Source: an uncultured Pseudomonadales bacterium
GTDB lineage: Bacteria; Pseudomonadota; Gammaproteobacteria; Pseudomonadales; Cellvibrionaceae
Direction of reading: 5' to 3'
Assembly (NCBI GenBank): GCA_947487765.1
Contig: CANKXO010000007.1
Location: 22,180 to 86,179, forward strand
Length of the DNA: 64,000 bases
Shown: in pieces, positions 25,266-44,093 of the stretch
How the letters are laid out: each line of letters begins with the position of its first letter
Position numbering within the stretch: the stretch's first letter is position 1
Translations under genes and position numbers: made by a program
The notes under the pieces: model-generated
Database searches by the model: none
Told to the model about the DNA's origin: nothing
Seen by the model: only the letters and a program-made list of their open reading frames with translations

Positions 25266-25520
25266 GGCTTTCAAAAATATATCGCTATATTTTGTATAAA
25301 TAATAAAAATAAGCTTGAAATTTATCGTTACAAGCCTAGAATGCACATCAAATTAATTAATGCAGAGACTTTATCTTTGAAGCATTTACTCATATTTACA
25401 AATTACAGCATCGCTTCTGGGGCCGATAGTGCCCAAGAGATACGCTGTGCGTCAATATAACCTGTCTAAGTAAATATAGCTGGCAGGTTTAGCCTTCCAG
25501 TTTTAAAAAGTTATTAAAAA

Positions 25521-25557
25521 CCCGGAAGGCATAACTGCTTTTCGGGTTTTTTTATGC
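25521..25557. terminator. Rho-independent terminator (A-tract / stem / T-tract, bidirectional)
   Basis: aaaaa-cccggaagg-cataactg-cttttcggg-ttttttt. Confidence 0.6.
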
Positions 25558-26127
25558 CCGAGTTTTAAAAGTAAATGATGAGAGTAATTAGAACTTTGCT
25601 CTTATAAAGTTGTTGGTAGTTGCAATTTTGACAAATGCATAAAAATAGGAGAGTTATTATTGAAAGTTAATCAGAGGCTTAGATCGTTTATTTATAGATG
25701 AATAGTGTCATTCCACGAGTAGGGAAAATTTATTTTACAGATAAGTTTTCCTCGCTAAATTATTGTCGAATTTTTGTGAATATAGCCGCAATGGCATCGC
25801 TCGCCTATTGATTGCTAATACAATATAACTTATTGATATATAGATATTATTTCAAAAAATACTATGCCTTGTTTTAATTTTTATTACGGGCTATTGTTTA
25901 AAAAGATTTACGAAACAACACATCCAAGTGTTAACAAAAAAGAGATTTAACCATGAACCGATTACTCGGAATAAATAACCATCATACAGCTTCAGAGTGG
26001 CCATTAAAGAGTCAGCTGCTGCCGTTTAGTAATTGTTATCGTCAAAATCAAGGCGATATGAGTTTAGAGATGTAATTTGCACTTTCCTTACCGGAAGGCT
26101 GCAAGGCCAACCGGATACGTTTTTTTG

Positions 26128-26160
26128 AAACCCGATTGGCTTTGCTTATCGGGTTTTTTT
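26128..26160 (+). terminator. Rho-independent terminator; the module ccggaaggc...tcgggtttttttatgccc repeats the 25521 element
   Basis: cccgat-tggctttgctt-atcggg followed by a T7 tract. Confidence 0.55.
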
Positions 26161-26497
26161 ATGCCCTTCATGGATGAAGGGTACATCGAAAATGCAGGTC
26201 GGCTTTTGCTCCTGCAAAACCGACATTCACGCCATCCATGGCGCTTGAGCAATTTTTTGAGTGCCCAAAGATGGAAGATGAACCCATAACGCTCGAGAAC
26301 CTTTCGAGTATTAAAGGATTAATTTTACATGGCAGTATTTTAGGAAGTTACTCCACAAGGATGTTTTTTAATAGTGCAATGCCCACTTACACGGCATTAG
26401 TTTTTTAACAATTTGGTCGCTTTTTCCGGCATATAAGAAAGGTAAATACATTCTCGGTAATCTCGATGAGTCGTATTTTTTACTTATATGCCAAGTA

Positions 26498-26653
26498 TGC
26501 CCCTATCGTCTAGTTGGATAGGACGCTGGGTTTTCAATTCAGTAACGTCGGTTCGCCGCAAGCGGACCGGTCCAAAGTTATAAACTTTGGCCGTTCAAGA
26601 AACGCAAAGCATGCTTTGCTTAACATGTTTCTTTCACCCATCTAGGGGCACCA
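26498..26653 (+). ncRNA. Long tRNA-like RNA L1. The 5' part is a canonical tRNA-Glu(TTC) (acceptor, D-arm, anticodon arm, start of the T-arm); an approximately 95-nt hairpin-rich insert follows, then a 3' strand complementary to the acceptor 5' strand + A + CCA
   Basis: gccccta (26498-504) pairs 7/7 with taggggc (26643-649), followed by a-cca; anticodon loop ttTTCaa; the insert holds three clean hairpins (ccgc-aa-gcgg; cgg.ccaaagtt-ata-aactttgg.ccg; aagaaac...gcaaagc-at-gctttgc...gtttctt). Confidence 0.55.
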
Positions 26654-26663
26654 ATAATTTGTT

Positions 26664-26740
26664 ACGTCGATAGCTTAACTGGCAAAAGCTCTGGCCTCCA
26701 AAACCAGGCGATGTAGGTTCGAACCCTACTCGGCGTGCCA
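26664..26740 (+). tRNA. tRNA-Trp (CCA)
   Basis: acceptor acgtcga/tcggcgt (one G-U), D-stem gctt/aagc, anticodon loop ctCCAaa (stem has a C-A mismatch), T-arm gtagg-ttcgaac-cctac, discriminator G + encoded CCA. Confidence 0.75.
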
Positions 26741-26749
26741 AACATAAAT

Positions 26750-26909
26750 GCAGTGATAGCCCCAATAGATCGGCAGATTTTTGTTTCATTGAAGATCAGG
26801 AGAGTGCTGGTTCGACAGCTTTGTAGGAGCAAAAGTTGGACGCTTGTATAGGCGGTCGAGAAGCGATTATGCACAAGGATGTGTATAACAATTCCGGCTC
26901 ACTGCACCA
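26750..26909 (+). ncRNA. Long tRNA-like RNA L2. Acceptor-like 7/7 pairing + discriminator + CCA encloses about 145 nt, including a degenerate T-arm-like hairpin and an internal module paralogous to the one in L5
   Basis: gcagtga (26750-56) pairs with tcactgc (26899-905), followed by a-cca; internal gctg-gttcga-cagc; the block tttgtaggagcaaaagttggacgc...ggcggtcgagaagcgattatgcacaagga aligns with the L5 insert. Confidence 0.5.
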
Positions 26910-26916
26910 GTTTTAT

Positions 26917-26993
26917 TTCGGTGTGAAGCAGAGTGGTAATGCGCCTGACTGTTAATCAGGAGTTCGTTGGTTCGACCCTAGCCGCCGGAGCCA
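26917..26993 (+). tRNA. tRNA-Asn (GTT)-like (non-canonical D-arm)
   Basis: anticodon arm cctga-ctGTTaa-tcagg, T-arm gttgg-ttcgacc-ctagc, acceptor ttcggtg/cgccgga (G-U pairs), G + CCA. Confidence 0.55.
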
Positions 26994-27001
26994 ATTTTAT
27001 T

Positions 27002-27083
27002 GAGGGTGTTGAGCAGGTGGTGAGCTCAGCGGACTGTAAATTCGCCGGAAACTATGTAGGTTCGATTCCTTCCACCCTCACCA
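27002..27083 (+). tRNA. tRNA-Tyr (GTA)
   Basis: acceptor gagggtg/caccctc 7/7, D-stem gagc/gctc, anticodon gcgga-ctGTAaa-ttcgc, 10-nt variable region, T-loop ttcgatt, A + CCA. Confidence 0.8.
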
Positions 27084-27090
27084 AATTTCC

Positions 27091-27168
27091 GGGCCAATAG
27101 CATAATCGGTAAATGCCCCGGCCTCATAAGCCGGAGAAGGAGCGGTTCGAATCCGCCTTGGCCTACCA
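27091..27168 (+). tRNA. tRNA-Met/Ile2 (CAT)
   Basis: acceptor gggccaa/ttggcct, D gcat/atgc, anticodon ccggc-ctCATaa-gccgg, T-loop ttcgaat, A + CCA. Confidence 0.75.
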
Positions 27169-27186
27169 ATTAAATGATTAGTTAAT

Positions 27187-27261
27187 AGCGGTGTTGAGCA
27201 ATGGCTGCTTTCGGGTTTCATATGCCCGAGCTTGTTGGTTCGATTCCAACCACCGCAACCA
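27187..27261 (+). tRNA. tRNA-Met (CAT), second copy
   Basis: anticodon cgggt-ttCATat-gcccg, perfect T-arm gttgg-ttcgatt-ccaac, acceptor 6/7 (A-A at 1:72), A + CCA. Confidence 0.7.
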
Positions 27262-27265
27262 AATT

Positions 27266-27356
27266 GGAAGTGTGGCCGAGTGGTAAGGCAGCGGATTGCT
27301 AATCCGTACAGTGATAAATCGTTGCTGCATGAGTTCGAATCTCATCACTTCCTCCA
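27266..27356 (+). tRNA. tRNA-Ser (GCT), long variable arm
   Basis: ggaagtg...ggccgagtggtaaggc, anticodon gcgga-ttGCTaa-tccgt, long variable arm, T-arm atgag-ttcgaat-ctcat, acceptor 7/7, T + CCA; 91 nt. Confidence 0.9.
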
Positions 27357-27382
27357 AAATACTCCGGTGATGCAATTGGAAG

Positions 27383-27486
27383 GCAGGTTAAGGCTCCTGC
27401 AAAACCTGCATTCCCACCATCCATGGTGGTCACATAGCCCACTTAAAATCGGTTTGTTGCGAGTTCGACTCTCGCCGTCTGCATCA
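27383..27486 (+). ncRNA. Long tRNA-like RNA L4. Acceptor-like 6/7 pairing, a Cys-type T-arm (gcgag-ttcgact-ctcgc), a GCA-containing loop and a covarying internal hairpin; no encoded CCA. A degenerate paralogue lies at 26189-26310
   Basis: gcaggtt (27383-89) vs cgtctgc (27476-82); cctgcaaaacc loop; ccacc-atccat-ggtgg hairpin corresponds to acgcc-atccat-ggcg in the 26196-26251 copy (compensatory changes). Confidence 0.45.
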
Positions 27487-27574
27487 GTTTTTCGTGAGGT
27501 AATTCAATTAGCAGAATGCGATTTTCATAAAATCGGCGATAGTGGTGCAAGTCCACTCTTCACGACCGGTTAAT

Positions 27575-27648
27575 AGCAGCGTGGTGTAACGGTAACACAC
27601 CGGACTTTGACTTCGGTATTTCAGGTTCGAATCCTGGCGCTGTTGCCA
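27575..27648 (+). tRNA. tRNA-Gln (TTG)
   Basis: acceptor agcagcg/cgctgtt, D gtgt/acac, anticodon ccgga-ctTTGac-ttcgg, T-loop ttcgaat, G + CCA. Confidence 0.75.
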
Positions 27649-27688
27649 AATAGTATGTTGAGTAGGGTTCTAAAAATATTTAATTTTT

Positions 27689-27763
27689 GTGCGAGTGGCA
27701 GAATGATGATGCGCGGAACTGCAACTTCCGTTTACGCCGGTTTGATTCCGGCCTCGCACTCCA
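27689..27763 (+). tRNA. tRNA-Cys (GCA)
   Basis: acceptor gtgcgag/ctcgcac 7/7, anticodon cggaa-ctGCAac-ttccg, T-arm gccgg-tttgatt-ccggc, T + CCA; 3-bp D-stem as in E. coli tRNA-Cys. Confidence 0.8.
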
Positions 27764-27769
27764 AATTTT

Positions 27770-27914
27770 CTGGATATAGCACAGCCTAGTAGCGTGTTGG
27801 GTTTAACTAAAATACATCCAAGTATTTTGCCCTTCGGGTTCTTCGAAGTTCAAAACGTTCCAGACGTTTTGTGGAGCTCAAAGTTTGTGGGTTCAAACCC
27901 TGCTATCCAGACCA
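27770..27914 (+). ncRNA. Long tRNA-like RNA L3. Canonical acceptor (7/7), D-arm and T-arm + A + CCA, with an approximately 85-nt structured insert replacing the anticodon region
   Basis: ctggata/tatccag; D gcac/gtgt; T-arm gtggg-ttcaaac-cctgc; the insert contains a cc-ttcg-gg tetraloop hairpin and aaaacgt-tccag-acgtttt hairpin. Confidence 0.55.
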
Positions 27915-27926
27915 ATTAATTTAAAC

Positions 27927-28000
27927 GCGGTGTTGACCGAATGGTTAGGTACCTGCCTTCCAAGCAGAGGAAATGGGTTCGATTCCCATACACCGCTCCA
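27927..28000 (+). tRNA. tRNA-Gly (TCC)
   Basis: acceptor gcggtgt/acaccgc 7/7, anticodon loop ctTCCaa (4-5 bp stem), T-arm atggg-ttcgatt-cccat, T + CCA. Confidence 0.75.
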
Positions 28001-28008
28001 AAATTTAA

Positions 28009-28082
28009 TGAAGGTTGGCTTAGTGGCTGAGCACCGGACTTTTAATCCGGCTAGATGGGTTCGATCCCCATACCTTCAACCA
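28009..28082 (+). tRNA. tRNA-Lys (TTT)
   Basis: acceptor tgaaggt/accttca 7/7, D gctt/gagc, anticodon ccgga-ctTTTaa-tccgg, T-arm atggg-ttcgatc-cccat, A + CCA. Confidence 0.85.
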
Positions 28083-28116
28083 ATTACAATAAAACAACTA
28101 AAAGGAGATCGTATTA

Positions 28117-29312
28117 TGGCGATTAAAAAAGTATTGGCGCCGCATAAAGATCAGCGGTTGCCTGTAAAAATTTGGACGGATGATATTGATTACAGCACGC
28201 AGGCTCAGTTGAGTCGTGTAGCGAACTTACCATTCGTTTATAAGCATGTAGCAGCGATGCCTGATGTACATCTCGGAAAAGGCGCCACTGTTGGTTCAGT
28301 GATTGCAACCGATAAAGCTATTATCCCTGCAGCTGTGGGTGTGGATATTGGATGTGGAATGAATGCAGTGAGATTATCTATTAAAGCAAAAGATTTGCCT
28401 GATAGCCTAAAATTGATTCGAAACGGAATTGAATCAGTTGTACCTTTAGGTCCCGGAGGTCAACATCGTGACCCCAAAATTGCTGGTGGTCATGATATAT
28501 CAATGCGTCTATGTACTATTTTTGAAAAACACCCGAAGTTAAGTAAGCGCGTTAAAGTGAATGGGTTTGCGAAACAATTAGGAACGCTGGGCTCAGGAAA
28601 TCATTTCATTGAATTATGTTTAGATGAAAATGATGACGTGTGGATTATGTTGCATTCAGGGAGTCGTGGAGTTGGCAATAAAATCGGTATGTACTTTATC
28701 GAAATTGCTAAACGAGAAATGGAAAAATGGATGATTCACTTACCTGATAAAGACTTGGCTTATCTATCTGAAGGGTCAGAATATTATGATGACTATATTG
28801 AAGCAGTTTCTTGGGGGCAAGATTATGCGGCATTGAATCGCACGCATATGATGAATGCAGTAATGCTAGAACTACGTAAGTATTTACCTGCGTTTACAAT
28901 CACACAAGAGGCTATCAATTGCCACCATAATTATGTTGAAAAGGAAAATCATTACGGCAAAAACGTATGGGTAACGCGTAAAGGCGCAATCCGTGCGAGA
29001 AAGGATGATCTTGGTATTATTCCCGGGTCCATGGGTGATAAAAGTTTTATTGTTCGTGGTAAAGGTGAATCTGAATCATTTTGTTCTTGTTCCCATGGTG
29101 CGGGTCGACGATTGAGTCGTACTGCAGCTGCAAAAACTTTTTCCGTTGCTGATCTCGTATCAGCTACTGAAGGAATAGAATGTCGTAAAGACAGGGGTGT
29201 CATTGATGAAATTCCAATGGCATATAAGCCTATCGATAGCGTGATGGATAACCAAACTGATCTAGTGGATATAGTTCATACACTTCGACAAGTCGTCAAT
29301 GTAAAAGGCTAG
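28117..29312 (+). CDS. rtcB: RNA ligase RtcB (3'-phosphate/5'-OH RNA-splicing ligase family)
   Basis: AMPDVHLGKGATVGSV, GCGMN, GSGNHFIEL, HSGSRGVG, CSCSHGAGR; RBS aaggag 9 nt upstream of the ATG at 28117. The tracked ORF from 27885 is an artefactual extension across two tRNAs. Confidence 0.9.
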
Positions 29313-29358
29313 AAAGGACTTAGCCTTTTCTTTCACCTCTTTCCTCATTTTTAATTTA

Positions 29359-29432
29359 GCCCAATTGGCATAGTGGTCGTGCAGCTGCTTTGTAAGCAGC
29401 AGAGACAGGTTCAATTCCTGTATTGGGCTCCA
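29359..29432 (+). tRNA. tRNA-Thr (TGT)
   Basis: acceptor gcccaat/attgggc 7/7, D gcat/gtgc, anticodon gctgc-ttTGTaa-gcagc, T-arm acagg-ttcaatt-cctgt, T + CCA. Confidence 0.85.
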
Positions 29433-29441
29433 GTTTACATC

Positions 29442-29593
29442 GCCTGATTAGTTCAATTGGACTTAGAGCATCCGCCTACGACAATTTTGCAGGAGCAAAA
29501 ATTGGGCGTCTATAGAGGCGATCGTGAAACGATAATGTGCAGGACGCATATTACAAACGGGAAGATGCGGGTTCGAATCCTATTCAGGTGCCA
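29442..29593 (+). ncRNA. Long tRNA-like RNA L5. Acceptor 6/7 + G + CCA, canonical D-arm, T-arm-like gcggg-ttcgaat, and an approximately 95-nt insert paralogous to the L2 insert
   Basis: gcctgat vs ttcaggt; D gttc/gagc; insert aattttgc-agga-gcaaaaatt hairpin, atcgt-gaa-acgat hairpin; aligns with L2 (tttgYaggagcaaaaRttggRcg...ggcgRtcgNgaaRcgatWatg). Confidence 0.5.
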
Positions 29594-29601
29594 AATTTAT
29601 T

Positions 29602-29678
29602 ACTCTCGTAGCTTAATTGGATAGAGCGTCTGTCTTCGAAACAGAACGGTGTTGGTTTGATTCCAACCGAGAGTGCCA
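29602..29678 (+). tRNA. tRNA-Arg (TCG)
   Basis: acceptor actctcg/cgagagt 7/7, D gctt/gagc, anticodon tctgt-ctTCGaa-acaga, T-arm gttgg-tttgatt-ccaac, G + CCA. Confidence 0.85.
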
Positions 29679-29917
29679 ATAATTATTATTAATAAACCCG
29701 AGAATCTTTAGGTGTGGCCGTGGCAGATTGATAAATTTACCGGGAGTAAATTTAGACGCGGGAGAGAAGCGACGGCGCCCGTAGGGGTTGTAACATGGAT
29801 GTTACAAACCAATGTGCGCTTAACTTTGGCTTAAGTGCCCTTGGTTTTTGGAAAGGGGAGTTCAGGTCGCATCGGTCACCCCTAAAGGTTTTTACTAATA
29901 GAAAAGGAGGTCAAGCA

Positions 29918-30211
29918 ATGAGACTTGCTATAACGCGATCAGGTTTTTATAACGCTGATCTTTATTGCGCTGATACTCGTACAGCTAAAAGAGTGTTGCG
30001 TGAAAAAAATATTTCCATATTGGCTATCGACTATTATCTAGTTGGCCAGGGAAATGGTTGCGATATTATTGATTGGGCTAAAAGAAATGCAGTTTTGCCT
30101 AATTTTATCGTTGTTATTGAACGTAATCGCAACAAACGAGCCTTATTATCGAATACATTACGAAATATAGGTTATCGCTCTGGTGATGATACTACCTTTA
30201 TAAGGCATTAA
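29918..30211 (+). CDS. Hypothetical small protein (97 aa), alternating beta/alpha pattern (receiver/Rossmann-like?)
   Basis: RBS aaaggagg 7 nt before ATG 29918; MRLAITRSGFYNADLY...ISILAIDYYL...NFIVVIERN; the longer tracked ORF from 29795 lacks an RBS. Confidence 0.5.
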   Translation: MRLAITRSGFYNADLYCADTRTAKRVLREKNISILAIDYYLVGQGNGCDIIDWAKRNAVLPNFIVVIERNRNKRALLSNTLRNIGYRSGDDTTFIRH

Positions 30212-30250
30212 ATTTAGTTAAAGCGACCACTATGATTAATTGAGAATAGG

Positions 30251-30814
30251 ATGATGAATATTCAAATTTTGCAGCTATCGAAGTCAGGTCACCCAATGTC
30301 TTGGGTGAACCGTGAAGAAGCCGCAACACTGTATGCAAAAAATAGGGTGTTATGGGAGCTGGGTGACGAAGTTATTCCAATTGTCGGCGGTATTAATCGC
30401 TTGGGCATTCAAAGTCGCTTCGATATGGCACCAATTATTGCTTGTGATGGTGATGTGAAACAACCTCGTTTACGACCATCGTTAAGTAATCGTATGCTGT
30501 TTCGCCGAGACGATTACCGATGCTTGTATTGTGGTGTTCAGTTTAATCACGACGGATTAACGCGGGACCATATTGTGCCGCGTATTCAAGGTGGTTTAGA
30601 TCGTTGGGAAAATGTGGTTGCTGCTTGTAAACGCTGTAATCACAGTAAGGGTGGTCGAACGCCAGAGCAGGCAGGGATCAAGCTATTGGCCATTCCATTT
30701 GTGCCGAATCCGTTTGAGTTTCTGTTTTTGGCAAATCGACATATTCTGGCTGACCAGATGGATTATCTTGCGACAAGCTTTTCGTCAAAGCGAGACTGGA
30801 AAAAAGTGGCTTAA
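30251..30814 (+). CDS. HNH endonuclease-domain protein
   Basis: CLYCG...DHIVPRIQGG...WENVVAACKRCNHSKGG (HNH with zinc-ribbon cysteines). Confidence 0.8.
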   Translation: MMNIQILQLSKSGHPMSWVNREEAATLYAKNRVLWELGDEVIPIVGGINRLGIQSRFDMAPIIACDGDVKQPRLRPSLSNRMLFRRDDYRCLYCGVQFNHDGLTRDHIVPRIQGGLDRWENVVAACKRCNHSKGGRTPEQAGIKLLAIPFVPNPFEFLFLANRHILADQMDYLATSFSSKRDWKKVA

Positions 30815-30834
30815 CTATTAAGCCACCCACATAT

Positions 30835-30862
30835 TTGGAATACAGGTATTAACCTGTATTCC
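30835..30862 (+). terminator. Strong hairpin after the HNH gene (11-bp stem, weak U-tract)
   Basis: ggaatacaggt-atta-acctgtattcc. Confidence 0.5.
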
Positions 30863-30991
30863 ATACCGATGTTTATACGTATGTTGGCGAAACAGCGGCT
30901 CTGGTTCTGAATGCCAGGCTGGCACAGTCATGTTTTATGTCCTGTGTACCGATTCACTAACACGTTAAACAGTATGCTCTGAAAAAGCATA

Positions 30992-31064
30992 GTTTTTGTA
31001 GCTCATAGGGTAGAGCAATCGACTCATAATCGATGGGTAGCAGGTTCGATTCCTGCCTCAAACA
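30992..31064 (+). tRNA. Degenerate tRNA-Met (CAT)-like gene (weak acceptor 5/7, no CCA)
   Basis: D gctc/gagc, anticodon atcga-ctCATaa-tcgat, perfect T-arm gcagg-ttcgatt-cctgc. Confidence 0.4.
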
Positions 31065-31084
31065 CAGTCAGTTTTAATAAACTG

Positions 31085-31127
31085 AAGGAAAAGCCGAGAG
31101 GCTGAGGTTCGAATCCTCATTTGGTCT
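31085..31127 (+). other. Isolated tRNA 3'-half fragment (variable arm + T-arm + 3' acceptor strand)
   Basis: gccgagaggc...tgagg-ttcgaat-cctca-tttggtc with no upstream 5' partner. Confidence 0.45.
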
Positions 31128-31424
31128 ACTAAACCAAATATAAAACAAGAGGCTCATAGCAACGTAATGCTGTTATAGATTATGTTGCGTTGACATTAAT
31201 ACCGTTAATGATGGGTTAAGGTATTGCGTAGTAAATAATAAGTTTACCTCACTATCAACAGCTAAGGATGGTGTCCTAGGGATGGGGATAATCAAGAGTG
31301 ATTAGGTTAGTGTGGAGCAACCGCTGTATTTGTCTACCCATTACATTTAAGTTATTTACCGTACTCATGGCAAATGGGCCTCGCCATTATAGTCATTGGA
31401 AGAAATAAATAAGGGAGAATAATA

Positions 31425-32576
31425 ATGATTCTTTGGAAAACAATCGATATTGCGGAACATGAACGTGTATTACTTTATGTCCGTGATCAATTTAAACAAG
31501 TGCTAGGCCCAGGTCGGCATCGTGTCTCGACCTTGAAGGGAAAAGTTCGCCAGGAAACCTATGATATTACCGAAGTAGTATTCAGGCATCCTAAAGAAAA
31601 ATTTTTGCTGTCACACTACCCAGAAAAACTGGCAATGCACCTTGAGCAGTTTGACTTAAAAGATACTGAAGTGGGCTTGTTATATCGAAATGGCCATTTA
31701 ATGAATGTGTTGGCACCTGGTAGTTTATTTACAGTTTGGAAAGGTGTTGAGGATATTCGTGTTGACGTTATCGATATTAATAACCACTATCAGATAGAAG
31801 AGTCTTTAATTGGCTTATTGGGGCGAGGCATTAAAATTGGTCAAAGCCGAGAAGTCGTTAATGCGATTGCTTATGCAGAGGTAGTTGATGAGCATGTAGG
31901 TTTATTGCTGGTTAACGGTAAGCTAGAAAAGATCTTGCAACCGGGTAGTTACGGCTTCTGGAAATATAACCGTTCAATTGCGGTTAAAATGCTTGATCTT
32001 CGTTTACAAGCAATGGAGGTTAGTGGCCAAGAGATTCTGACCAAAGATCGCGTGAGTTTGCGTATTAACTTAACTGGTAGTTATAAAATTAAAGATCCTC
32101 AAATTGTTGCCTCTAAGGTGAATGATTACGCAGGTTTTATCTATCGTGAGTTGCAATTAAGTTTGCGAGAAATTGTAGGCACACAATCATTAGATGGATT
32201 GTTAGAAGATAAAGATGCTTTAAATTCTGTAATTACTCAGAGTACACGAGAAAAATTAGCGGAATACGGTATTCAGTTAATGAGTGTCGGGGTTAAAGAT
32301 ATTATTTTACCTGGTGAAATGAAGCAGATTCTGAATCGAGTAGTAGAGGCGCAAAAAGAGGCTGAAGCTAATTTGATTAAGCGTCGTGAGGAAACTCAGG
32401 CAATGCGTTCATTACATAATGCTGCCAAGATGATGGAAAACAACCCTGTGTTGTTACGTTTAAAGGAATTAGAAGCATTAGAAAGAGTGACTGGGAAAAT
32501 CGATAAGATTTCTGTCTATGGTGGCCTTGATAGTGTTCTTAATGACTTGGTAAAACTGGCGCCGGTCAAAACCTAA
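31425..32576 (+). CDS. SPFH/band-7 domain protein (cytoplasmic, duplicated N-terminal beta-domain)
   Basis: SPFH core TKDRVSLRINLTGSYKIKDPQIVASKV...QLMSVGVKDIILPGEMKQILNRVVEAQKEAEANLIKRREETQAM; no N-terminal TM. Confidence 0.7.
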   Translation: MILWKTIDIAEHERVLLYVRDQFKQVLGPGRHRVSTLKGKVRQETYDITEVVFRHPKEKFLLSHYPEKLAMHLEQFDLKDTEVGLLYRNGHLMNVLAPGSLFTVWKGVEDIRVDVIDINNHYQIEESLIGLLGRGIKIGQSREVVNAIAYAEVVDEHVGLLLVNGKLEKILQPGSYGFWKYNRSIAVKMLDLRLQAMEVSGQEILTKDRVSLRINLTGSYKIKDPQIVASKVNDYAGFIYRELQLSLREIVGTQSLDGLLEDKDALNSVITQSTREKLAEYGIQLMSVGVKDIILPGEMKQILNRVVEAQKEAEANLIKRREETQAMRSLHNAAKMMENNPVLLRLKELEALERVTGKIDKISVYGGLDSVLNDLVKLAPVKT

Positions 32577-32749: not shown

Positions 32750-34531
32750 CTAGCGAAAAGATACAATCAAAAATATAAGTACAGCAATTGCCGCAAAAAT
32801 CATTACGCGAGCGAAGGGTTGCATAGAATCTGTATTAGATGCATCCGATAGCCATGGTGATTGAGATTCTTTCTGTTGTTGTGACTTAGTTTCTTCCTTT
32901 TTTGTTTGTTTTTTTGCGGTCGCTATTTGTTTAAGCTCTTCTGTAGTATTCTCTTTAACAGGTGGTGCTGGTGGCTCAGCTTGCCACCAGTTTTCGCGTG
33001 GTGCTTCACCGGCAGCGGCCTTTAAGCGTAAAAGTTTATTATTTAATTTGCCAATGCGACTTGGATTAACTTGATAACTGTATTTTTGTTTTAGTTGTAC
33101 TATTTGCTTTTGTAAAGGAATGCCCTTGCTAGGGTTAACCATTGCGACAAAGTTGGCGTAACCTTCTATGGAGCACAATAAATTGCTACTGCTATTGTGA
33201 GAACGATGAGCCCAGTGCTTACCCTCTAGCCCGCTTTTGTCAATTTGATGTAGTAAGGCTCTGAAGCGCTTTAAGGTCTTGCGATCAACGCTAAGGTTAT
33301 TATTCACTACCACGCCGGTCACTTCTTGTTTTTTATGCTTGCGCATAATGCGTGTTTTTTCGGGGTGAACAATAAAACCTTCATCCTTAATAATACTATG
33401 ACAACGCCACAATAGTTTTTTTACAATGCTGTCGTCAATATTCTGTGGATTAATATCATCGCCCTTGTTGGAGCTTGCCGAAAAAGTAACATCGTCAGCA
33501 TATCGCGTATAAGTAAAGCCTAATTTTTTAGCCATCCCTTGTAAGCGAGCATCCAATTTTCTACAGATGATATTGCTAATATTAGGGCTAGTTGGCGCTC
33601 CTTGCGGTAAAAAGCGCTCTCCGTTACTAACAAACCAAGACTGACTATCTAGTTCAACCTCCTGTGTATTCGCTTCGGTGCAAAGTAAGGCTAGTACTGT
33701 TGCAATGTGTTCACTGTAACCTAGAGCTTTAAACATCCCCTTAACTCTTGGATAGCTAATTGTTGGAAAGAAGTTTTTAAGGTCGAGGTTAATAACAATA
33801 TCTTTGCCTACATGAGGCGCAGCATTGGTTACGATAGAGCGCGTGCGTACAAAGCCATGAGCGGCATCATGTAATGCCAGCGGCTCTAAAATATTGGATA
33901 AAACCCAATACTGGGCAAGTTTCAACCGTGGCATAGGGGCAGATATTAGGCGAGTTCCACCGGTTTTCTTGGTCATTTGGAAGCGTTGATAATGACTAAT
34001 CGTGCAGACATCTTTTTGGTAGACTAAAAAACGTAGCTCATTAACGGTAATGCCCATGGCTCTGGCCAACATTTGGCTGTCGTGCAGTAGTGGTAACTGT
34101 TGGGCTTGGAGTTTGTCTTCATCGCTGTTAACTTTTGATAGCCCTATCGATAAACCTTCCCCTACGAAGGTAATAAATTTCTTTTGGATGTCGTACCAAT
34201 TCTTTGCTCGTTGGTATCGTGTTTCATTGCGTTCTTTACGCTTTTCTTCTCTACGAATAAGTGCTTCTTTTTTACGCTGTTTGTGTAACTCCTTTAGTGC
34301 TTGCTCTGGGTCTTGATACAATTGCTGTTGCTTTCCTAATTCACGCAGTTGCTTTTGTAACTGCCCGCGCTTTTCAATAAAGGTTTCTGTTAGTGTTGGC
34401 TGTTCACTATTTTTTGGCCAAAACCCAAGACGTTTCATCTCTGCTAAAATATAAACTTCTTTACCACCTGTTTCGCGTACGCGCTGGTAGAGTTCTTGGC
34501 GGCTTAATTTTTTAGTGCTTTCGTCAGACAT
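32750..34531 (-). CDS. Retron-type reverse transcriptase with a long N-terminal extension and a C-terminal transmembrane anchor
   Basis: RLISAPMPRLKLAQYWVL, NAAPH (NAxxH), NLDLKNFFPTI, QGAPTSP, YADD, VTGVVV (VTG); collinear with Ec86 RT; C-terminus MIFAAIAVLIFLIVSF is hydrophobic after a Lys/Gln-rich low-complexity linker. Confidence 0.85.
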   Translation of the reverse strand: MSDESTKKLSRQELYQRVRETGGKEVYILAEMKRLGFWPKNSEQPTLTETFIEKRGQLQKQLRELGKQQQLYQDPEQALKELHKQRKKEALIRREEKRKERNETRYQRAKNWYDIQKKFITFVGEGLSIGLSKVNSDEDKLQAQQLPLLHDSQMLARAMGITVNELRFLVYQKDVCTISHYQRFQMTKKTGGTRLISAPMPRLKLAQYWVLSNILEPLALHDAAHGFVRTRSIVTNAAPHVGKDIVINLDLKNFFPTISYPRVKGMFKALGYSEHIATVLALLCTEANTQEVELDSQSWFVSNGERFLPQGAPTSPNISNIICRKLDARLQGMAKKLGFTYTRYADDVTFSASSNKGDDINPQNIDDSIVKKLLWRCHSIIKDEGFIVHPEKTRIMRKHKKQEVTGVVVNNNLSVDRKTLKRFRALLHQIDKSGLEGKHWAHRSHNSSSNLLCSIEGYANFVAMVNPSKGIPLQKQIVQLKQKYSYQVNPSRIGKLNNKLLRLKAAAGEAPRENWWQAEPPAPPVKENTTEELKQIATAKKQTKKEETKSQQQKESQSPWLSDASNTDSMQPFARVMIFAAIAVLIFLIVSFR

Positions 34532-34638
34532 CTGCCTGTCTCCCTAATATAAATAAGGATAAATGTTGAGTGTTAAAAAAATGGATAATGATAGTTGTTA
34601 CAAGAACAAATAAAGAAGAGAAGTGCGCAAGATAAAAG

Positions 34639-34868
34639 GGTGCCAGCGTGCTCAATGTTTCCTTCGTAGAGCTCTTAGTACTGGATTGATCAACTCGACG
34701 CGGCACGCCCCTACTATCGCTCATTGACTTCATGGAAGTCATACCGCAATAGCGATAGTAGGGGCTGTGCCGCCCTATGAAGATCAGGCCAGTGACGCGT
34801 GTGTAGTCTATAAACCAGAACGGCGATGCACCGCTCAAATTGCAAGGTAGATAAGTCACGCTGACACC
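34639..34868 (-). ncRNA. Retron msr-msd non-coding RNA (a1/a2 inverted repeats flanking a long msd hairpin)
   Basis: a1 ggtgtcagcgtg (minus strand, plus coords 34857-34868) pairs with a2 cacgctggcacc (34639-34650) over 12-14 bp; about 72-nt near-perfect palindrome at 34701-34772 (cggcacgcccctactatcgct...agcgatagtaggggctgtgccg with inner gacttc-atg-gaagtc). Confidence 0.7.
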
Positions 34869-34931
34869 TGTGCTAGTATAGCAGTGTTGTTAGGTTTTAA
34901 AAGAGCGCTATTAAAATTCTTCATGATCTCT

Positions 34932-36572
34932 TTAACCGTTTGCTAAGGAATATTGTTTTCTGATCGCTAATATATGTTCGCATGGCCCCATGCGCAGTAA
35001 ATTCGTTCGATAAAAATAACAGTCGCAGCTAGCCTCTTTTAAACGTTGATCGCCGTCAATTTTAATCTCAGTGTTCAAATGGTGTCCGTCATCAATGACT
35101 GTTCCTTGAATTTGAGCACCTCTTTCATTTTCTAGCTTATGATGAATTGTCACCAAGTTGGCGGCCACAAATCGAGCAGACTTTTCATCGCGCTCATTAG
35201 CAAAACGCAATGAGTCCATCGGTAAAGGTTGTTGGCTAAGTTCACGGATACGATAAACACTTCCGGCTAAATCATAAAGCACTTGCCCCTGTTGGCTATA
35301 GGCAGCCAATGCAGATTTCACTACTGACTCATCTAAATGCAGTCGTCGTGCCAGTGAGTCACTGGATTCTTGCCATGTCTCTGATAGTGCTTGGTAAACA
35401 CGTTTAAGTGTTACTTCGTCAACATCACCTCTAGGCGCTAATAGATCAAAGTTACCCATTCGTGACCAATCATTTGCTGACCAGCCCGACAAACCTAAGG
35501 TAAATGTCATATCGCCTAAATCGGCAACGTAAAAACTAGGTAAGCCATTACCTAATAGATGTACCGTAAATTTTTTGGCGATAGGGATTAAACGCTCCAA
35601 TATATGCAGGCGACGGCGCCCCCATATACGAATTGATCTAGCGTCATTTCCTGTATAAATGCTTCTGGCTAATATTAATTCTGTGCCCCATGGCTCTAAG
35701 ATAATTTTAATAGGCTCATCTGATGCCAGTTCAAATCGTATTGCCCGAGGGCCTACGCGCTCTCTTTTACGCCGCAACATATAACAAATATTGTGAATAT
35801 CCATTGGGTGCAATGTTAATGTGGTCATGGGTAAGGTCATAGCTGAGCTTACCTGTAAAAAACCACGCACCCAGCTTTCAGGAAGATCAATTTTCTTTTC
35901 GTCAAATTGTTCCTCATGGCTGGTTTGCATACTGAAACCATCGGGGTCAATTGCCAATGCTGTTTGGCGATACTCTCTTATTTTTTGAAATTCGTTGTAT
36001 AAACCTTCCGAGTAATCAATATTTGTGGTGCCGTAAGAAGTATCGGTTATATTATCAAATACGTCATAGCTACAGCTAAGTTTTCCGTAACTTGATTCAT
36101 CTTCAGAAAAACATTCAAAAAAAACTTCGTCGGGATGGACGGTAATTACTGGGTCAAGTACATACCAAGCATCCATATCGGTTTTATAAAGATGTTTGAA
36201 ATATTTGTTCTGAGCTGTATAAAAAGGCCCCATTAATGCTTGGCTTTGCTTGCTAAGTTCAGATAGTTCTTTGCGCACAAGCTCAATTTCGCCTTCCACC
36301 TGTGACTTGCGACCAATAAATTCTGCCAATAGCCGCTCTTCTTCTTCAGCTAGCCAGCGCTCGTATTCGCTGCGATCTTTTGGCTGAAAGCGCATATCAG
36401 AAATCACAACATTGTGTAGTGCCGATATCGCCTCACGAAAAGCTATTTTCTGCTTAAGCTGTCCTACAAAATAAGTAGGTAGGCGCAAACTGTCAGGCAC
36501 AAAAGATACATCTGTACTCGCTGCATTGCTCGCAACATGGCTCTGCCCATGATATCGATAACGAAATTCCAT
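34932..36572 (-). CDS. SWIM zinc-finger protein (retron accessory / putative effector)
   Basis: C-terminal CxCx(n)CxH: EASCDCYFYRTNLLRMGPCEHILAI; 546 aa. Confidence 0.7.
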   Translation of the reverse strand: MEFRYRYHGQSHVASNAASTDVSFVPDSLRLPTYFVGQLKQKIAFREAISALHNVVISDMRFQPKDRSEYERWLAEEEERLLAEFIGRKSQVEGEIELVRKELSELSKQSQALMGPFYTAQNKYFKHLYKTDMDAWYVLDPVITVHPDEVFFECFSEDESSYGKLSCSYDVFDNITDTSYGTTNIDYSEGLYNEFQKIREYRQTALAIDPDGFSMQTSHEEQFDEKKIDLPESWVRGFLQVSSAMTLPMTTLTLHPMDIHNICYMLRRKRERVGPRAIRFELASDEPIKIILEPWGTELILARSIYTGNDARSIRIWGRRRLHILERLIPIAKKFTVHLLGNGLPSFYVADLGDMTFTLGLSGWSANDWSRMGNFDLLAPRGDVDEVTLKRVYQALSETWQESSDSLARRLHLDESVVKSALAAYSQQGQVLYDLAGSVYRIRELSQQPLPMDSLRFANERDEKSARFVAANLVTIHHKLENERGAQIQGTVIDDGHHLNTEIKIDGDQRLKEASCDCYFYRTNLLRMGPCEHILAIRKQYSLANG

Positions 36573-36643
36573 ATTTTTGCCTGAGAAATTTTTCTGAAAA
36601 TTATGAATCTAATGCGTTTTTGTATAATTTTTATATAGCGTTT

Positions 36644-39600
36644 TTAAACACCCAGCGATGCAGGTTGTTTAATGGGTACCTTTTTGGCTGTTAAGGGTGA
36701 TGCTATATCTGGATACAATGATTGTAATTTAAGCATAGCTTTTATCAAAGCGGCTTTATCTTTATGTACCATAGTTAACGAAATTCGTTCCAATAAAGGC
36801 ATTACCATAGTGGCAACACTTATATCTTTTTCTGCTTCTCTTAATAAAAACAGTAGAATCCTATCTTTACAAACGCGACCCTTATTAATTTGTGATAACG
36901 CTGTTGTAAAATAAGCTTGTAATGAAAGTATATGGCTAGGAATACCCGCCGCGTATTCTTCTAAAAAACTGCTGACAAAAAGCTGTACATTATTTGACGG
37001 ATGCTGGCTTAACTTAAGCAAGTATTCTGGGCCATACTCAGCTTTAAAAAAAGATTGTAGTATTTCGCGTCCAAAGCTTTGTACGTCATCTCTGATGCTG
37101 TCGCAAATAAAAATAACAATTTCAGGGCTCCAATCTTCTTGGCTGTATTGTTGTCGAAAAAAATCAAAGCCAAAGGTTCTTGCATCGTCCCAGTTGCTAT
37201 TTAGAATTCGAAGAGCATCACGACTGTATTGTTTAATTTCATCTACATTTTTCTCGTAAGCCTGAAATGCAAACTGCCTGACAGATACATCGCTATGCTG
37301 GCCTAATATTGCCCATTGTTTGACTGAAAATATATCTGCATTACGTTCAGTTAAGGTTATGGCGCCCACTCGTTGAGCACAGATAGATTGTGCCTGTAAT
37401 AAGCGCCATAGCATATCATTGTCTAGTTTCGTTAAATGTGATTGTGCCAATGAAGTAAAAAAGGCAATTAATTCTTCATGTTGCCCAGGCTGCTCTTCAG
37501 ACTTAAATGTCAGCGCTAATAATGTATTTTCAATCTGCTCGGATCCCTGTTGAGAGTTGGTCATTAGGCGGGAAAAAATAGAAAGTAGGGAGGCGCGCTC
37601 TTGAGTATCGCCCTTGCAATACAAGCCGACTAATAAGTCTAATTGTTTGATTAAGTCTTTATCGGCTTGTTTGCCTAGTAATGCAGCACCTATCCCTCTA
37701 ACTTCGGCTGAGGATGAATCATGAATTGCCTGTAATAAGCTGTCGGGAATATCTCCATAAGATATTTTGTGTCCAAGCAATAATTTTGCACCTAATATTT
37801 TTCTGGGTACTTTCTCGTCATGAATTAAACGTTGCAAACTAGTAAGAGGGAAGTGTTTAATTGCATCATTTAGGTTCTCAAGTGCAAAATCGGCCAAATA
37901 CTCTGCATGCTTTTCGCTTAAGTTGCTGTTCTCTAAAAAGATAGAATCAACTATAGCTTGCAATAGTTTCTCAGCATTTCTACCAGAAATCTTTTGCTGG
38001 CAAACAGCCGTTTTAATGTCACTTTGTACATCACTATGAAGAATCAATAGTAGTGATGTTAATAGTGAAATATCATCATTAATTTTGAACCTTAGTAAAG
38101 ATTGCTTACCTAATACTCTAGCCTCAGTCAGCGAGCTACTTAGTAGAGCGATTAATAATTCACTACTTAAATCGTCTTGTTTAATGCGTTCGCGAACAAT
38201 TGCTAGTGCAAATTCACAAGTACTCGCATAGTTGCTGTTCAGTAAAAGAGCTAAATCTACAGGGCTGATTTTCTGGCAAAAACTCGGTTGATTTTCTAAT
38301 ATCCGACGAGCGAAAGGATGAACCAGCTCGCATCGACTTGTTTTTAATAAGCGTAGTGCATGGCTAGGCTTTTGATCCCAAAGTTCAGCAAAGCATTCGG
38401 TACGAGATCCATTTATCAAGGAAGTACCGTCGGTATTCGACTCATCACTTTTTATCCAGACGCGGCCACTAGGTGCAAGTTGATACCCTGGATGATGTTC
38501 GAAGAGGATATGATTTAAGCTTAAGAAGCTGGCAAAAGGGCCATATTCATTGCTGGATATCAACTGGCGTTGCCAATTGTCGCCACTATTATCCCAGCGA
38601 TAAACCTCTGATGTTCGAGGCTTGCTACCATGCTCATCATTAATCGCAAGCAATGATTCTGTTGCCATATCAACATAACGGAGATCACCGGCCTGTCCTA
38701 TACGCCTGAGTACTCGCCAGCTACGACGGCGAAAGTAATCTCGTGTACGATGCGAGAAGGTCAATTTTGCATTGGCCTTTTTCAGTTCTTTAGATGGTTT
38801 AATACTGCCTTCACCGGGAAGCCATGCCCAATCCCAATCATTACGAAAAAATGCGGGTGCTGTTTCTATACGCTGCGCTAATAAGCCAAATACAGACCCG
38901 TCAAGACGTAGCTCGGATGCTTTATAAATTGATCTAATGCCCCGAAAATATCCTGGGGTTAGGGGAATAATAGCCAGTTGACTTAATAATGCTTGATGCA
39001 ATATGGGGTAAGCTAGCGATAGCTGATAACAAAGTACCAATAGCTGATTAGTATTGTTAACGTTGTCACTAGCCCCATGACTGAGCAACGCGCCAAGTTG
39101 CTGATGAGCAGTGCTACTATTTCCTTCCATAACAGCAGATTTAAACTGTGCAGGAAAGTGCTGCCAATGGCTGCCTAACAAGGCTTTGCGCGATGTTTGG
39201 TCGCTGATTAATAGTTGCGATTCAAAGGCTATATGACAAACTTGTGCTTGTTTGTGTTGCCTCAAGGTTTCTAAAACCGCCTTGTGTTGCGTGGCAACCA
39301 TCCGCCCCAAGGCCCAAGCAATAGAGTAATCCTCTAACCAATGGCCTTTCTTAATATAGGGCACAATTGCATTGGCAATAGGTTCACAATCTCGGTGCCC
39401 TAATTCCCCGAGTCGCCATATCATGCGGCTGCGAGATTTAGTCTCTTTTTCATTGGGTAAATGATTGAGTATCTGTTCAATTAGTTTAAAAGGAAAGTCA
39501 TCGGAGGCAAGATTGCTAGAAGGGACGCCTGCAAGTGTAGGCGAGGTAGTAGTAGGGGACTGTTTTGCTTGTTCTCTATCCCAATAGCCTTTATTGACTT

Positions 39601-39820
39601 TGGATACAACAACACTATCAAATAGCTTCTCTGCTTTGCTAAGCTCAACAGCTTCAGGGGTTTTAGTGCCTTCTCTTAATTGATTGCCGCGACGCCCGTA
39701 TCGAAAATTAACGAGATAACGTTCATCTTTTCGGCTTGCTAACTCACATAAATCAACTTCATAAACTTTGTCGGAATTGCCTTCCTGATACACCAATCGA
39801 GATTGCTTGATTAGTCGCAT
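36644..39820 (-). CDS. Large WGR-like + alpha-helical repeat protein (MolR/DUF4132-like), retron accessory
   Basis: N-terminal KVYEVDL...YLVNFRYGRRGNQLREGTKT resembles a WGR domain; the remaining roughly 950 aa are Leu-rich helical repeats. Confidence 0.55.
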   Translation of the reverse strand: MRLIKQSRLVYQEGNSDKVYEVDLCELASRKDERYLVNFRYGRRGNQLREGTKTPEAVELSKAEKLFDSVVVSKVNKGYWDREQAKQSPTTTSPTLAGVPSSNLASDDFPFKLIEQILNHLPNEKETKSRSRMIWRLGELGHRDCEPIANAIVPYIKKGHWLEDYSIAWALGRMVATQHKAVLETLRQHKQAQVCHIAFESQLLISDQTSRKALLGSHWQHFPAQFKSAVMEGNSSTAHQQLGALLSHGASDNVNNTNQLLVLCYQLSLAYPILHQALLSQLAIIPLTPGYFRGIRSIYKASELRLDGSVFGLLAQRIETAPAFFRNDWDWAWLPGEGSIKPSKELKKANAKLTFSHRTRDYFRRRSWRVLRRIGQAGDLRYVDMATESLLAINDEHGSKPRTSEVYRWDNSGDNWQRQLISSNEYGPFASFLSLNHILFEHHPGYQLAPSGRVWIKSDESNTDGTSLINGSRTECFAELWDQKPSHALRLLKTSRCELVHPFARRILENQPSFCQKISPVDLALLLNSNYASTCEFALAIVRERIKQDDLSSELLIALLSSSLTEARVLGKQSLLRFKINDDISLLTSLLLILHSDVQSDIKTAVCQQKISGRNAEKLLQAIVDSIFLENSNLSEKHAEYLADFALENLNDAIKHFPLTSLQRLIHDEKVPRKILGAKLLLGHKISYGDIPDSLLQAIHDSSSAEVRGIGAALLGKQADKDLIKQLDLLVGLYCKGDTQERASLLSIFSRLMTNSQQGSEQIENTLLALTFKSEEQPGQHEELIAFFTSLAQSHLTKLDNDMLWRLLQAQSICAQRVGAITLTERNADIFSVKQWAILGQHSDVSVRQFAFQAYEKNVDEIKQYSRDALRILNSNWDDARTFGFDFFRQQYSQEDWSPEIVIFICDSIRDDVQSFGREILQSFFKAEYGPEYLLKLSQHPSNNVQLFVSSFLEEYAAGIPSHILSLQAYFTTALSQINKGRVCKDRILLFLLREAEKDISVATMVMPLLERISLTMVHKDKAALIKAMLKLQSLYPDIASPLTAKKVPIKQPASLGV

Positions 39821-41460: not shown

Positions 41461-41464
41461 TAAG

Positions 41465-44091: not shown

Positions 44092-44093
44092 AT

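Follow-up and report, generated by a model that had tools for sequence, protein, structure and literature searches.

What are the similar inserts that interrupt two tRNA-like genes in a 64-kb stretch of bacterial chromosome (hereafter the window; contig CANKXO010000007.1 of an uncultured member of the Cellvibrionaceae), and are they removed from the RNA or retained in it? The two genes, L2 and L5, belong to an accessory tRNA array (26490-31065), which comprises 14 tRNAs recognized by ARAGORN and five over-long tRNA-like genes (L1-L5), interspersed with genes for the RNA ligase RtcB, a cREC-like protein and an HNH endonuclease. The inserts represent a previously undescribed family of structured intervening modules, designated module A, in bacterial tRNA genes of this RtcB-linked array; literature searches for such inserts revealed no description of them.

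Identification and distribution of module A

A preliminary description of L2 and L5 had placed a shared block at about 26821-26885 and 29483-29548, respectively, had interpreted the inserts as paralogous modules with paired changes in two helices, and had proposed selection on RNA structure. The block is indeed present at both places, as attested by repeat search, MAFFT alignment and covariance model. The repeat search of the window yielded an ungapped direct repeat of 59 nucleotides (nt) with 78% identity (D6; 26813-26871 and 29479-29537), and the likeness spans about 77 nt once gaps are allowed in the MAFFT alignment. The similarity is far above chance, and the paralogy of the two modules was borne out; their boundaries are given in Table 1.

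The occurrence of module A was assessed using the following approach: (i) Related loci (denoted by three-digit numbers, e.g., L001) were taken with 8-11 kb around RtcB orthologues. (ii) These loci were searched with a two-sequence profile first and then with a covariance model, R1. The R1 matches in the window include those of L2 (26815-26892, 91.2 bits, E ~1e-17) and L5 (29481-29557, 92 bits). Further homologues were found in the related loci, for a total of 16 matches over seven loci (including the window), 13 of which score 60-94 bits. The window contains three copies, L001 two, L002 three, L003 two, L070 and L076 one each, and L077 four; an additional variant in L002 was missed by R1. The six loci other than the window were chosen only via their RtcB gene, and module A scores 60-94 bits in them.

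Module A is phylogenetically narrow, being limited to a few bacteria of marine type: all seven loci possess an RtcB at least 86% identical to that of the window, and one carrier bears a species name, Aurantivibrio infirmus (locus L003, with an interrupted tRNA-Leu(TAG) at 4490-4639). The copies, one to four per locus, all reside in tRNA loops of the array, except for one degenerate remnant. In 80 loci of viral RtcB genes (759 kb) no module A was found, the R1 maximum being at most 25 bits, and almost no tRNA arrays occur among the 40 of these loci that were scanned for tRNAs. In unrelated loci fetched by the search pattern only (approximately 300 kb), R1 gave nothing above 31 bits. A wider scan with a strict P1-gap-P3 pattern (see below for the hairpins), covering 185,579 species genomes, metagenomes of the Joint Genome Institute (JGI) and IMG/VR, returned only array copies in two already known carrier genomes, and the remaining matches failed R1. 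A partial 56-nt R1 match of 30.6 bits was observed at L046 1161-1216 (minus strand), on an unrelated 344-kb metagenome contig (Ga0105250_10000008); it is probably due to chance, its score being owed to the part fixed by the search pattern.

Fold of module A

Module A is 74-78 nt long and is composed of four consecutive hairpins, P1 to P4. P1 (9 bp and, in most copies, a bulged A; loop AGGA or CGGGA) begins with the first inserted base and is followed by a 2-nt joiner, P2 (5-6 bp), P3 (5 bp; triloop GAA or AAA; often reading GCGAAGC), P4 (7-8 bp, with the loop (A/C)NGGA(U/C)) and an A/C-rich 3' tail of 3-5 nt, usually ACAA. When the L5 module is folded alone, its minimum-energy structure consists of the same four hairpins. 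GGA occurs in the P1 loop of 14 of the 16 copies and in the P4 loop of 13, above stems that covary, and the two GGA loops are about 50 nt apart.

Of the two helices previously proposed, the first (P1) was correct and contains one true double change between L2 and L5 (C-G versus U-A). The second (P3) exists as well, but its inner pair in L2 is an A x G mismatch, and the change between the two copies is therefore not compensatory. P2 and P4 had been overlooked, and P4 shows the three clearest double changes of the pair. Covariation cannot be established from two copies alone; it is established by sixteen. In an alignment of eight copies, 96% of the cells pair and both sides have changed in 15 of the 26 pairs. 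With 16 copies the pairing is kept in 94.4% of 413 cells, with changes on both sides in 23 of the 26 pairs; none of 500 shuffles matched this value, and controls in which the partner was slid were only 32-47% paired. The 16 copies contain 31 G·U cells versus six A·C cells, and the tRNA-sense strand is therefore the selected strand. Selection on the fold of this strand is well supported by the alignment, as had been suggested on the basis of the two copies.

It is scarcely conceivable that the similarity reflects chance, a remnant of coding sequence or a protein-binding DNA site, and we count this explanation as refuted. A mechanical minus-strand open reading frame (ORF; 26662-26874) does overlap L2, but the covariance-model E-values in independent genomes range from 1e-11 to 1e-18, the 23 doubly changed pairs are compensatory, and in L5 the frame that follows the Shine-Dalgarno-like P1 loop encounters a stop within five codons. 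Because of single-base indels and differences in loop length, module A has no conserved reading frame.

Host tRNA genes and insertion sites

The host of the L2 module derives from tRNA-Phe, and its L001 orthologue is a clean tRNA-Phe(GAA) plus module. The window gene has preserved its acceptor stem (GCAGTGA/TCACTGC-ACCA) and T-stem (GCTGG/CCGGC). Its D and anticodon arms are scrambled: the 3' strand of the D-stem and the 5' strand of the anticodon stem are lost, and the residue at this place resembles a remnant of a second insert, module B (described below). The module lies in the T-loop, directly after UUCGA (A58), and ARAGORN calls no tRNA in the host upon its removal. In the case of L5, removal of the insert yields a tRNA-Arg(acg) of 78-79 nt according to ARAGORN, like the uninterrupted L070 orthologue save for a C31 x A39 mismatch. 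The host of the third window copy is a degenerate gene that differs from the L001 tRNA-His (6605-6678) by its anticodon (TTG instead of GTG) and by a second insertion, which disrupts the T-arm.

A recognisable host surrounds 15 of the 16 copies; in 14 of them the module is located in a tRNA loop in sense orientation, and in the fifteenth it is inverted. The one copy left lies outside any tRNA. Among the 14 sense copies, nine occupy the T-loop after U-N-N-R-A (in Phe, Tyr, Leu(TAG), Lys, Glu and two odd tRNA-like genes), four are at position 37/38 of tRNA-Arg (ACG or TCG) and one is in a D-loop. All sense copies in a T-loop or anticodon loop lie directly 3' of U-N-N-R-A, and since T-loop insertion comes after this sequence (A58), the five-base T-loop motif stays intact. 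In view of the sense orientation in 14 of 15 hosts, the module is expected in the pre-tRNA transcript, where it is predicted to sprout from the T-loop or anticodon loop, thereby forming a five-way junction closed by the T-stem or anticodon stem. The inverted copy (L077 2059-2135, minus strand, 61 bits), located in the anticodon loop of a Met(CAT)-like gene, would appear as UCC-loop hairpins in the array transcript.

Uninterrupted orthologues of the host genes were identified for Arg-ACG (L070 and L074), Phe (L003, L070, L074 and L076), Tyr (window and L001), Lys (window) and His (L001 and L070). Module A moves: sister genomes differ in whether a given tRNA gene carries it, and it is found in at least eight different tRNA species. 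Deletion of the module in silico gives an ARAGORN tRNA with a plausible anticodon in nine of the 16 hosts (Phe, Tyr, Leu-TAG, Lys, three Arg-ACG, Arg-TCG and Glu). Those not restored are the degenerate hosts (window L2, L002 Phe, the window His-derived gene, two in L077 and the odd L070 gene) and the hostless L003 remnant; in L002 Phe and L077 4050-4262, which harbor modules A and B, no tRNA was restored by removing both, although many choices of boundary were tried. The three weakest copies (29-34 bits) are in degenerate hosts or hostless and the best-preserved ones (62-94 bits) mostly in intact hosts; some copies in degenerate hosts nonetheless score 60-91 bits.

Two copies in L077 (1622-1695 and 5747-5823) have swapped flanks, wherein the T-loop of Glu reads UACGA and the anticodon loop of Arg reads CUUCGA, with the anticodon TCG. 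The L074 gene that is seemingly orthologous to the latter has the anticodon ACG. This suggests that copying of the module may drag the 5' pentanucleotide along.

Between the window and L001, the third codon positions of RtcB are 69% identical, uninterrupted tRNAs 95.6%, module A 92-96% and the Arg exons 87-92%. The corresponding values between the window and L002 are 56% for the third positions, 69-77% for module A and 84% for the Arg exons. The interrupted Arg gene has kept its cloverleaf across the 56% third-position split, and its anticodon loop, CUACGA, is invariant. Judging by these comparisons, the tRNA-Arg host body and the module fold are both under purifying selection, and module A conserves structure more than sequence. 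The notion that the module evolves more slowly than its exons is true for the window versus L001 (96% compared to 87-92%) but reversed versus L002 (69% compared to 84%), and was dropped.

Module B and other inserts

A second family of inserts, module B, measures about 55 nt and is composed of two hairpins with the loops UCCU and AUCCAU, which complement the GGA loops of module A. All copies of module B (listed in Table 1) share the strand of the array, and almost all follow G18-G19 in a D-loop (that of Leu-TAA, Phe, Thr, Met or Ala-TGC). Modules A and B share a host in two cases (L002 Phe and L077 4050-4262), in addition to the remnant in window L2. P1 of module A copy 2 is matched exactly, as its reverse complement, by the first hairpin of the solitary module B upstream of the array, TTTTGCTCCTGCAAAA (I11, 16 nt, 100%). 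An extended antisense duplex between the two modules was rejected, as this 16-nt complementarity of the window is not kept in other genomes, in which only the GGA/UCC loops are kept.

Other over-long genes of the array are interrupted or rearranged in different ways. The L001 orthologue of L1 (3520-3595) is uninterrupted, and at the position of the chimeric L3 gene L001 contains three separate Leu genes (4299-4543). Two hairpins, one with an AUCCAA loop and one with UUCG, separate the anticodon region of L4 from its T-arm, and the window gene has an extra 35 nt (~27843-27877) compared to L001. The presence of at least two more unrelated insert families (module B and the L1 insert of about 80 nt) in tRNA loops of the array points to a general tolerance of, or a removal route for, such sequences.

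Genomic context

The island is flanked by ORFs for UvrA, an AcrB/OEP efflux pump, a glutamine-synthetase-like protein, an aldehyde dehydrogenase, a GGDEF-EAL regulator and a LysR regulator. A phage origin was rejected in view of these chromosomal flanks (UvrA, AcrB/OEP, GlnA-like and GGDEF-EAL) and of the lack of any megablast or blastn match in phage or plasmid collections. Upstream of the array, two copies of a terminator-like hairpin, each followed by GGGTTTTTTTATGCCC, are present at 25516-25560 and 26120-26170, at a distance of 607 nt (D10, D11 and D16).

RtcB orthologues that are 84-95% identical and are associated with the same kind of array occur in Cellvibrionaceae-like gammaproteobacteria, including a Cellvibrionaceae metagenome-assembled genome and Aurantivibrio infirmus, and RtcB is present in every module-bearing locus. 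A gene for a protein of 97-98 amino acids (aa) lies 3' of RtcB in most related loci, including all module carriers. The HNH gene, whose domain is nearest to the HNH domains of IscB and Cas9d, occurs in all eight loci with a tRNA array and is absent from four array-less RtcB loci (L004, L006, L010 and L072); in L078, it is accompanied by one tRNA only. A small gene for the alternative ribosome-rescue factor ArfA was observed inside the tRNA array of three loci (L003 4162-4302, L074 2641-2796 and L076 3272-3412).

Further downstream, a Band-7 gene and a group of RNA-repair genes (40201-44789) are found, the latter coding for a CCA-adding-type nucleotidyltransferase with an HD domain, RlaP, a second RtcB and an RF-1-domain protein; the last two resemble the PrfH-RtcB ribosome-repair pair. 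Between the Band-7 and CCA-adding-enzyme genes lies a type XIII retron-like defence cassette (32750-39820, minus strand), composed of RT_XIII, an ORF of 111 aa, SWIM_XIII and WGR_XIII (PADLOC E-values from 1e-188 down to 0); the syntenic L001 is without this cassette.

Table 1 Positions of modules, host genes and associated protein genes (window coordinates unless a related locus is named)
Feature	Position	Strand	Details
Module B, solitary	26194-26248	+	Upstream of the array; nhmmer E = 9e-15
L1, tRNA-Glu(TTC)	26499-26653		Unrelated structured insert of ~80 nt in T-loop, between G57 and A58
L2 host, tRNA-Phe-derived gene	26750-26909	+	From alignment with the L001 orthologue
Module A, copy 1 (L2)	26816-26891	+	P1 26816-26838 (loop AGGA 26825-26828); P2 26841-26854; P3 26855-26867; P4 26868-26887 (loop AGGA 26876-26879); tail ACAA 26888-26891
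L3, chimeric gene	27357-27492		tRNA-Leu(TAA) 5' part and Leu(CAA)-like 3' part; acceptor strands no longer pair
Module B	27379-27434	+	D-loop of the chimeric Leu(TAA)-derived gene L3; D15; nhmmer E = 3e-16; alignment with L001
L4, over-long tRNA-like gene	27770-27914; L001 4692-4801		Not called by ARAGORN
RtcB RNA ligase	28116-29312	+	Pfam PF01139, E = 7.5e-128; within the array, between L2 and L5
L5 host, tRNA-Arg(ACG)	29442-29593	+	Interrupted between 37 and 38
Module A, copy 2 (L5)	29482-29555	+	P1 29482-29504 (loop AGGA 29491-29494); P2 29507-29520; P3 29521-29533; P4 29534-29552 (loop AGGAC); tail ACA
Host of third copy, degenerate His-derived gene	~29714-29883	+	Module in D-loop region
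Module A, third copy, diverged	29731-29812	+	R1 29.3 bits, E ~2e-4; alignment to uninterrupted L001 tRNA-His; P1 loop CGGGA; enlarged middle; P4 loop UGGA
cREC-like protein, 97 aa	29918-30211	+	Pfam PF20274 (cREC_REC, cyclic-phosphate-processing receiver domain), E = 7e-4, weak, below curated cut-off
HNH endonuclease	30251-30814	+	Pfam HNH_5, HNH
Second, divergent RtcB	42865-44091
RF-1-domain protein (PrfH-like)	44094-44789
Module B in related loci	L002 3872-3926; L070 2794-2847, 4352-4406; L074 3621-3661; L077 3693-3730, ~4067-4135

Comparison with known intervening sequences and structured RNAs

Rfam reports only tRNAs at its gathering thresholds, and no ribozyme, intron or small RNA matches the module at E <= 10. 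Group I introns are several hundred nt long (>200), have a U at position -1 in a G·U pair of their P1, and end with a G. Module A, of 74-78 nt, has no P3-P9 core and no match to RF00028 or to Rfam at large (gathering threshold or E <= 10); the base that precedes the insert is an A in every copy whose flank was read (…CGA, …CAA or …TAA), and the high-scoring copies have an A/C-rich end (ACAA). What the two have in common is the interruption of bacterial tRNA genes, often at position 37/38; group I introns are also known from the T-loop of transfer-messenger RNA (bioRxiv 10.1101/2020.01.27.920355).

A parallel in habit is found in the non-canonical tRNA introns of archaea, which are processed by EndA and RtcB. 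Like module A, these are shorter than 100 nt, occur at 37/38 as well as in D- and T-loops, may be several per tRNA, comprise similar inserts across tRNA species and have an RtcB-type ligase available, which in the window is encoded both inside the array and further downstream. In Thermoproteales, related introns at differing positions in different tRNAs, removed by protein-based splicing, have been read as the result of transposition (PMC4033280). Archaeal introns are defined by their junction motif alone, whereas module A is bacterial, shows no bulge-helix-bulge and has a conserved four-hairpin fold of its own with GGA loops. Its 5' junction abuts the first pair of P1, and in ten of ten copies the longest helix that the last bases of exon 1 can form with the insert's 3' terminus measures 2-5 bp, no better than in shuffles; a bulge-helix-bulge intron was therefore rejected. 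No EndA match was found among the island proteins scanned.

Small self-cleaving ribozymes (hammerhead, twister, twister-sister, pistol, hatchet and those like that of hepatitis delta virus) fall into the same size range, and their products are the ends that RtcB ligates; the hatchet and delta-like ribozymes cleave at their extreme 5' end, which is where P1 of module A begins. Unlike these ribozymes, module A consists of four independent hairpins with no internal-loop or pseudoknot core, and two cuts would be required. A relaxed-filter cmscan of 26000-31500 gave no Rfam ribozyme family at E <= 10. Cutting by a MazF-like enzyme at the ACA triplets of both ends was rejected as well, as such cuts would not be expected to regenerate a 7-nt loop.

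Bacterial Y RNAs (YrlA), encoded in rsr-rtcB operons, possess a tRNA-like domain and an extra module for effector binding, which replaces the anticodon arm and binds Ro (PMC4201824). The resemblance to module A lies in the proximity to RtcB and in the division into a tRNA-shaped part and an extra module; in our case, however, the module is inserted into the T-loop or anticodon loop. A Y RNA was rejected, as the sole match to RF02553 (27434-27545) scores 24 bits versus a threshold of 69 and lies off the module, and no TROVE/Ro was found among the scanned ORFs.

CsrA/Rsm RNAs possess two or more GGA sites, 10-63 nt apart, and the two apical GGA loops of module A correspond to such an arrangement. 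GGA in apical hairpin loops is likewise a feature of CsrB, RsmY and RsmZ; module A differs from these in having two sites per module, in being embedded in tRNA genes, and in showing no Rfam match and no visible link to Gac/Csr genes. The consensus selected for CsrA by systematic evolution of ligands by exponential enrichment (SELEX) is RUACARGGAUGU, with GGA in a hairpin loop (PMC4347634).

Module A does not conform to a repeat of the miniature inverted-repeat transposable element (MITE) or repetitive extragenic palindromic (REP) type: the copies are few and not dispersed, and the repeat and alignment results, which did not include a dedicated test, show neither terminal inverted repeats nor target duplication.

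Proposed fate of module A

We favour, tentatively, the explanation that module A is a mobile, intron-like intervening sequence, which would be excised from the transcript, the host then being resealed by RtcB. The RNA would be cut at both junctions in a metal-independent reaction with 2',3'-cyclic phosphate and 5'-OH ends as its products, catalysed either by the RNA itself or by an RNase for which the twin GGA hairpins would be the recognition signal. RtcB joins precisely such cyclic-phosphate and 5'-OH ends; the adjacent enzyme would thus seal the halves, the cREC-like protein may process the ends, and a usable tRNA would be restored. New loops would be reached either through recombination, in which the 5' flank U(U/A)CGA is carried with the module, or through the cut-and-ligate reaction acting in reverse. 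We prefer this explanation because the fold is selected on the sense strand, because the module sits in tRNA loops in sense orientation with empty sites in sister genomes, and because its deletion restores nine of 16 tRNAs and the interrupted Arg gene has remained a cloverleaf. Moreover, RtcB lies inside the array, other insert families share the preference for loops, the weakest copies are in degenerate or missing hosts, and there is an archaeal precedent in the introns of Thermoproteales (PMC4033280).

Several findings weigh against excision. The genes of the island include no endonuclease candidate. HNH enzymes leave 5'-phosphate and 3'-OH ends, which are not joinable by RtcB, and with no suitable endonuclease nearby the cleavage would have to be performed by the RNA itself or by an RNase encoded elsewhere that reads its GGA hairpins. 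A bulge-helix-bulge motif is absent, the pairing across the junctions is at the level of shuffles, and no known ribozyme matches at E <= 10. Seven of the 16 copies have hosts that are unable to be tRNAs, yet several of them reach 60-91 bits, namely those of window L2, L002 Phe and L070 and the inverted one of L077. The 31-39 mismatch persists after removal of the module in all four interrupted Arg genes and is present in neither of the two uninterrupted ones. The swapped flanks of L077 (TACGA in a T-loop and TTCGA in an anticodon loop) argue for copying at the DNA level, heedless of host function, and one copy is inverted relative to its host. Finally, since related RtcB operons exist without a tRNA array, RtcB does not serve the inserts solely.

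A possible, though doubtful, alternative is that the module is retained as an RNA domain on a tRNA or tRNA-like scaffold, in the manner of YrlA; the two explanations stay close. The scaffold would provide RNase P and 3'-end processing as well as stability, and the GGA hairpins would bind a dimeric CsrA/Rsm-type protein or a protein of the island, or would kiss the UCC loops of module B. The frequency of GGA in the P1 and P4 loops, above covarying stems and at a spacing of about 50 nt, is consistent with such a role, as are the strong copies in hosts that are dead as tRNAs but keep their acceptor and T stems (window L2, 91 bits; L002 Phe, 77 bits), insertion after A58, which spares the T-loop motif, and module B, with its complementary UCCU and AUCCAU loops and its shared hosts. 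The apex of P4 reads ACA-N-GGA in seven copies, followed by UGU in four, which is near the SELEX consensus of CsrA (PMC4347634), but the Arg-type P4 loops (GCAGGACGC) are without its ACA. RtcB-linked tRNA-like non-coding RNAs are an established class (PMC4201824), but the YrlA match nearby is far below threshold and outside the module, and no CsrA-like or Ro-like gene was found among the scanned island genes. The stems of module A P1 and of the first module B hairpin do not covary between genomes, the conserved complementarity being restricted to 3-5 nt of loop; one to four copies per genome amount to far fewer GGA sites than in the CsrB or RsmZ sponges; and retention leaves without explanation a site in the anticodon loop of a conserved tRNA-Arg, the loop itself being invariant.

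An unlikely alternative is that the modules are small selfish repeats, i.e., MITE-, REP- or PATE-like (palindrome-associated transposable element) DNA in a decaying, weakly selected array, whose hairpins would be read on one DNA strand by a transposase or recombinase; the RNA would then have no role, and the interrupted genes would be pseudogenes. The inverted copy, the flanking pentanucleotide that travels with the module, the many degenerate genes of the array (the L3 chimera, the His-derived gene, L2 and L002 Phe) and the side-by-side presence of several unrelated insert families would all be in line with this proposal. G·T pairs are tolerated in hairpins of single-stranded DNA as well, and GCGAAGC, which P3 often reads, is an unusually stable DNA mini-hairpin. 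On the other hand, orientation is 14:1 in favour of the tRNA sense, the sites are RNA loops rather than a class of DNA sequence, and the Arg exons, 84% identical compared to 56% at neutral sites, remain under purifying selection. Furthermore, the copies are very few and restricted to the tRNA loops of a single island, with array copies only in the pattern scan of species genomes, no transposase was found among the scanned island ORFs, and the hallmarks of transposition mentioned above are missing from the repeat and alignment results (in which they were not specifically sought).

The intron-like explanation can be carried further, to a rather improbable scenario in which this clade possesses a protein- or RNA-catalysed form of tRNA splicing outside the group I and bulge-helix-bulge types. 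Mini-introns (module A, module B and others) would be released from T-, D- and anticodon loops, perhaps through self-cleavage or through an RNase of a stress response or toxin that recognises the twin GGA hairpins. RtcB would then rejoin the exons, and the reversed chemistry, acting on tRNA loops nicked by a nuclease, would account for the hopping of the modules between tRNAs.

Implications for bacterial tRNA genes

Group I self-splicing introns are the sole interruptions listed for bacterial tRNA genes (PMC4033280; survey in bioRxiv 10.1101/2020.01.27.920355). Short, structured, position-hopping inserts in T-, D- and anticodon loops, interleaved with RtcB, would be a second kind. If they are spliced, they would constitute a physiological splicing substrate for bacterial RtcB and a counterpart, in bacteria, of the intron transposition of archaea. 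Retained inserts, on the other hand, would represent natural tRNA-scaffolded RNAs with GGA/UCC kissing or protein-binding loops in an RNA-repair island. Either way, the family offers a testable entry to the role of accessory tRNA arrays and their RNA-repair genes.

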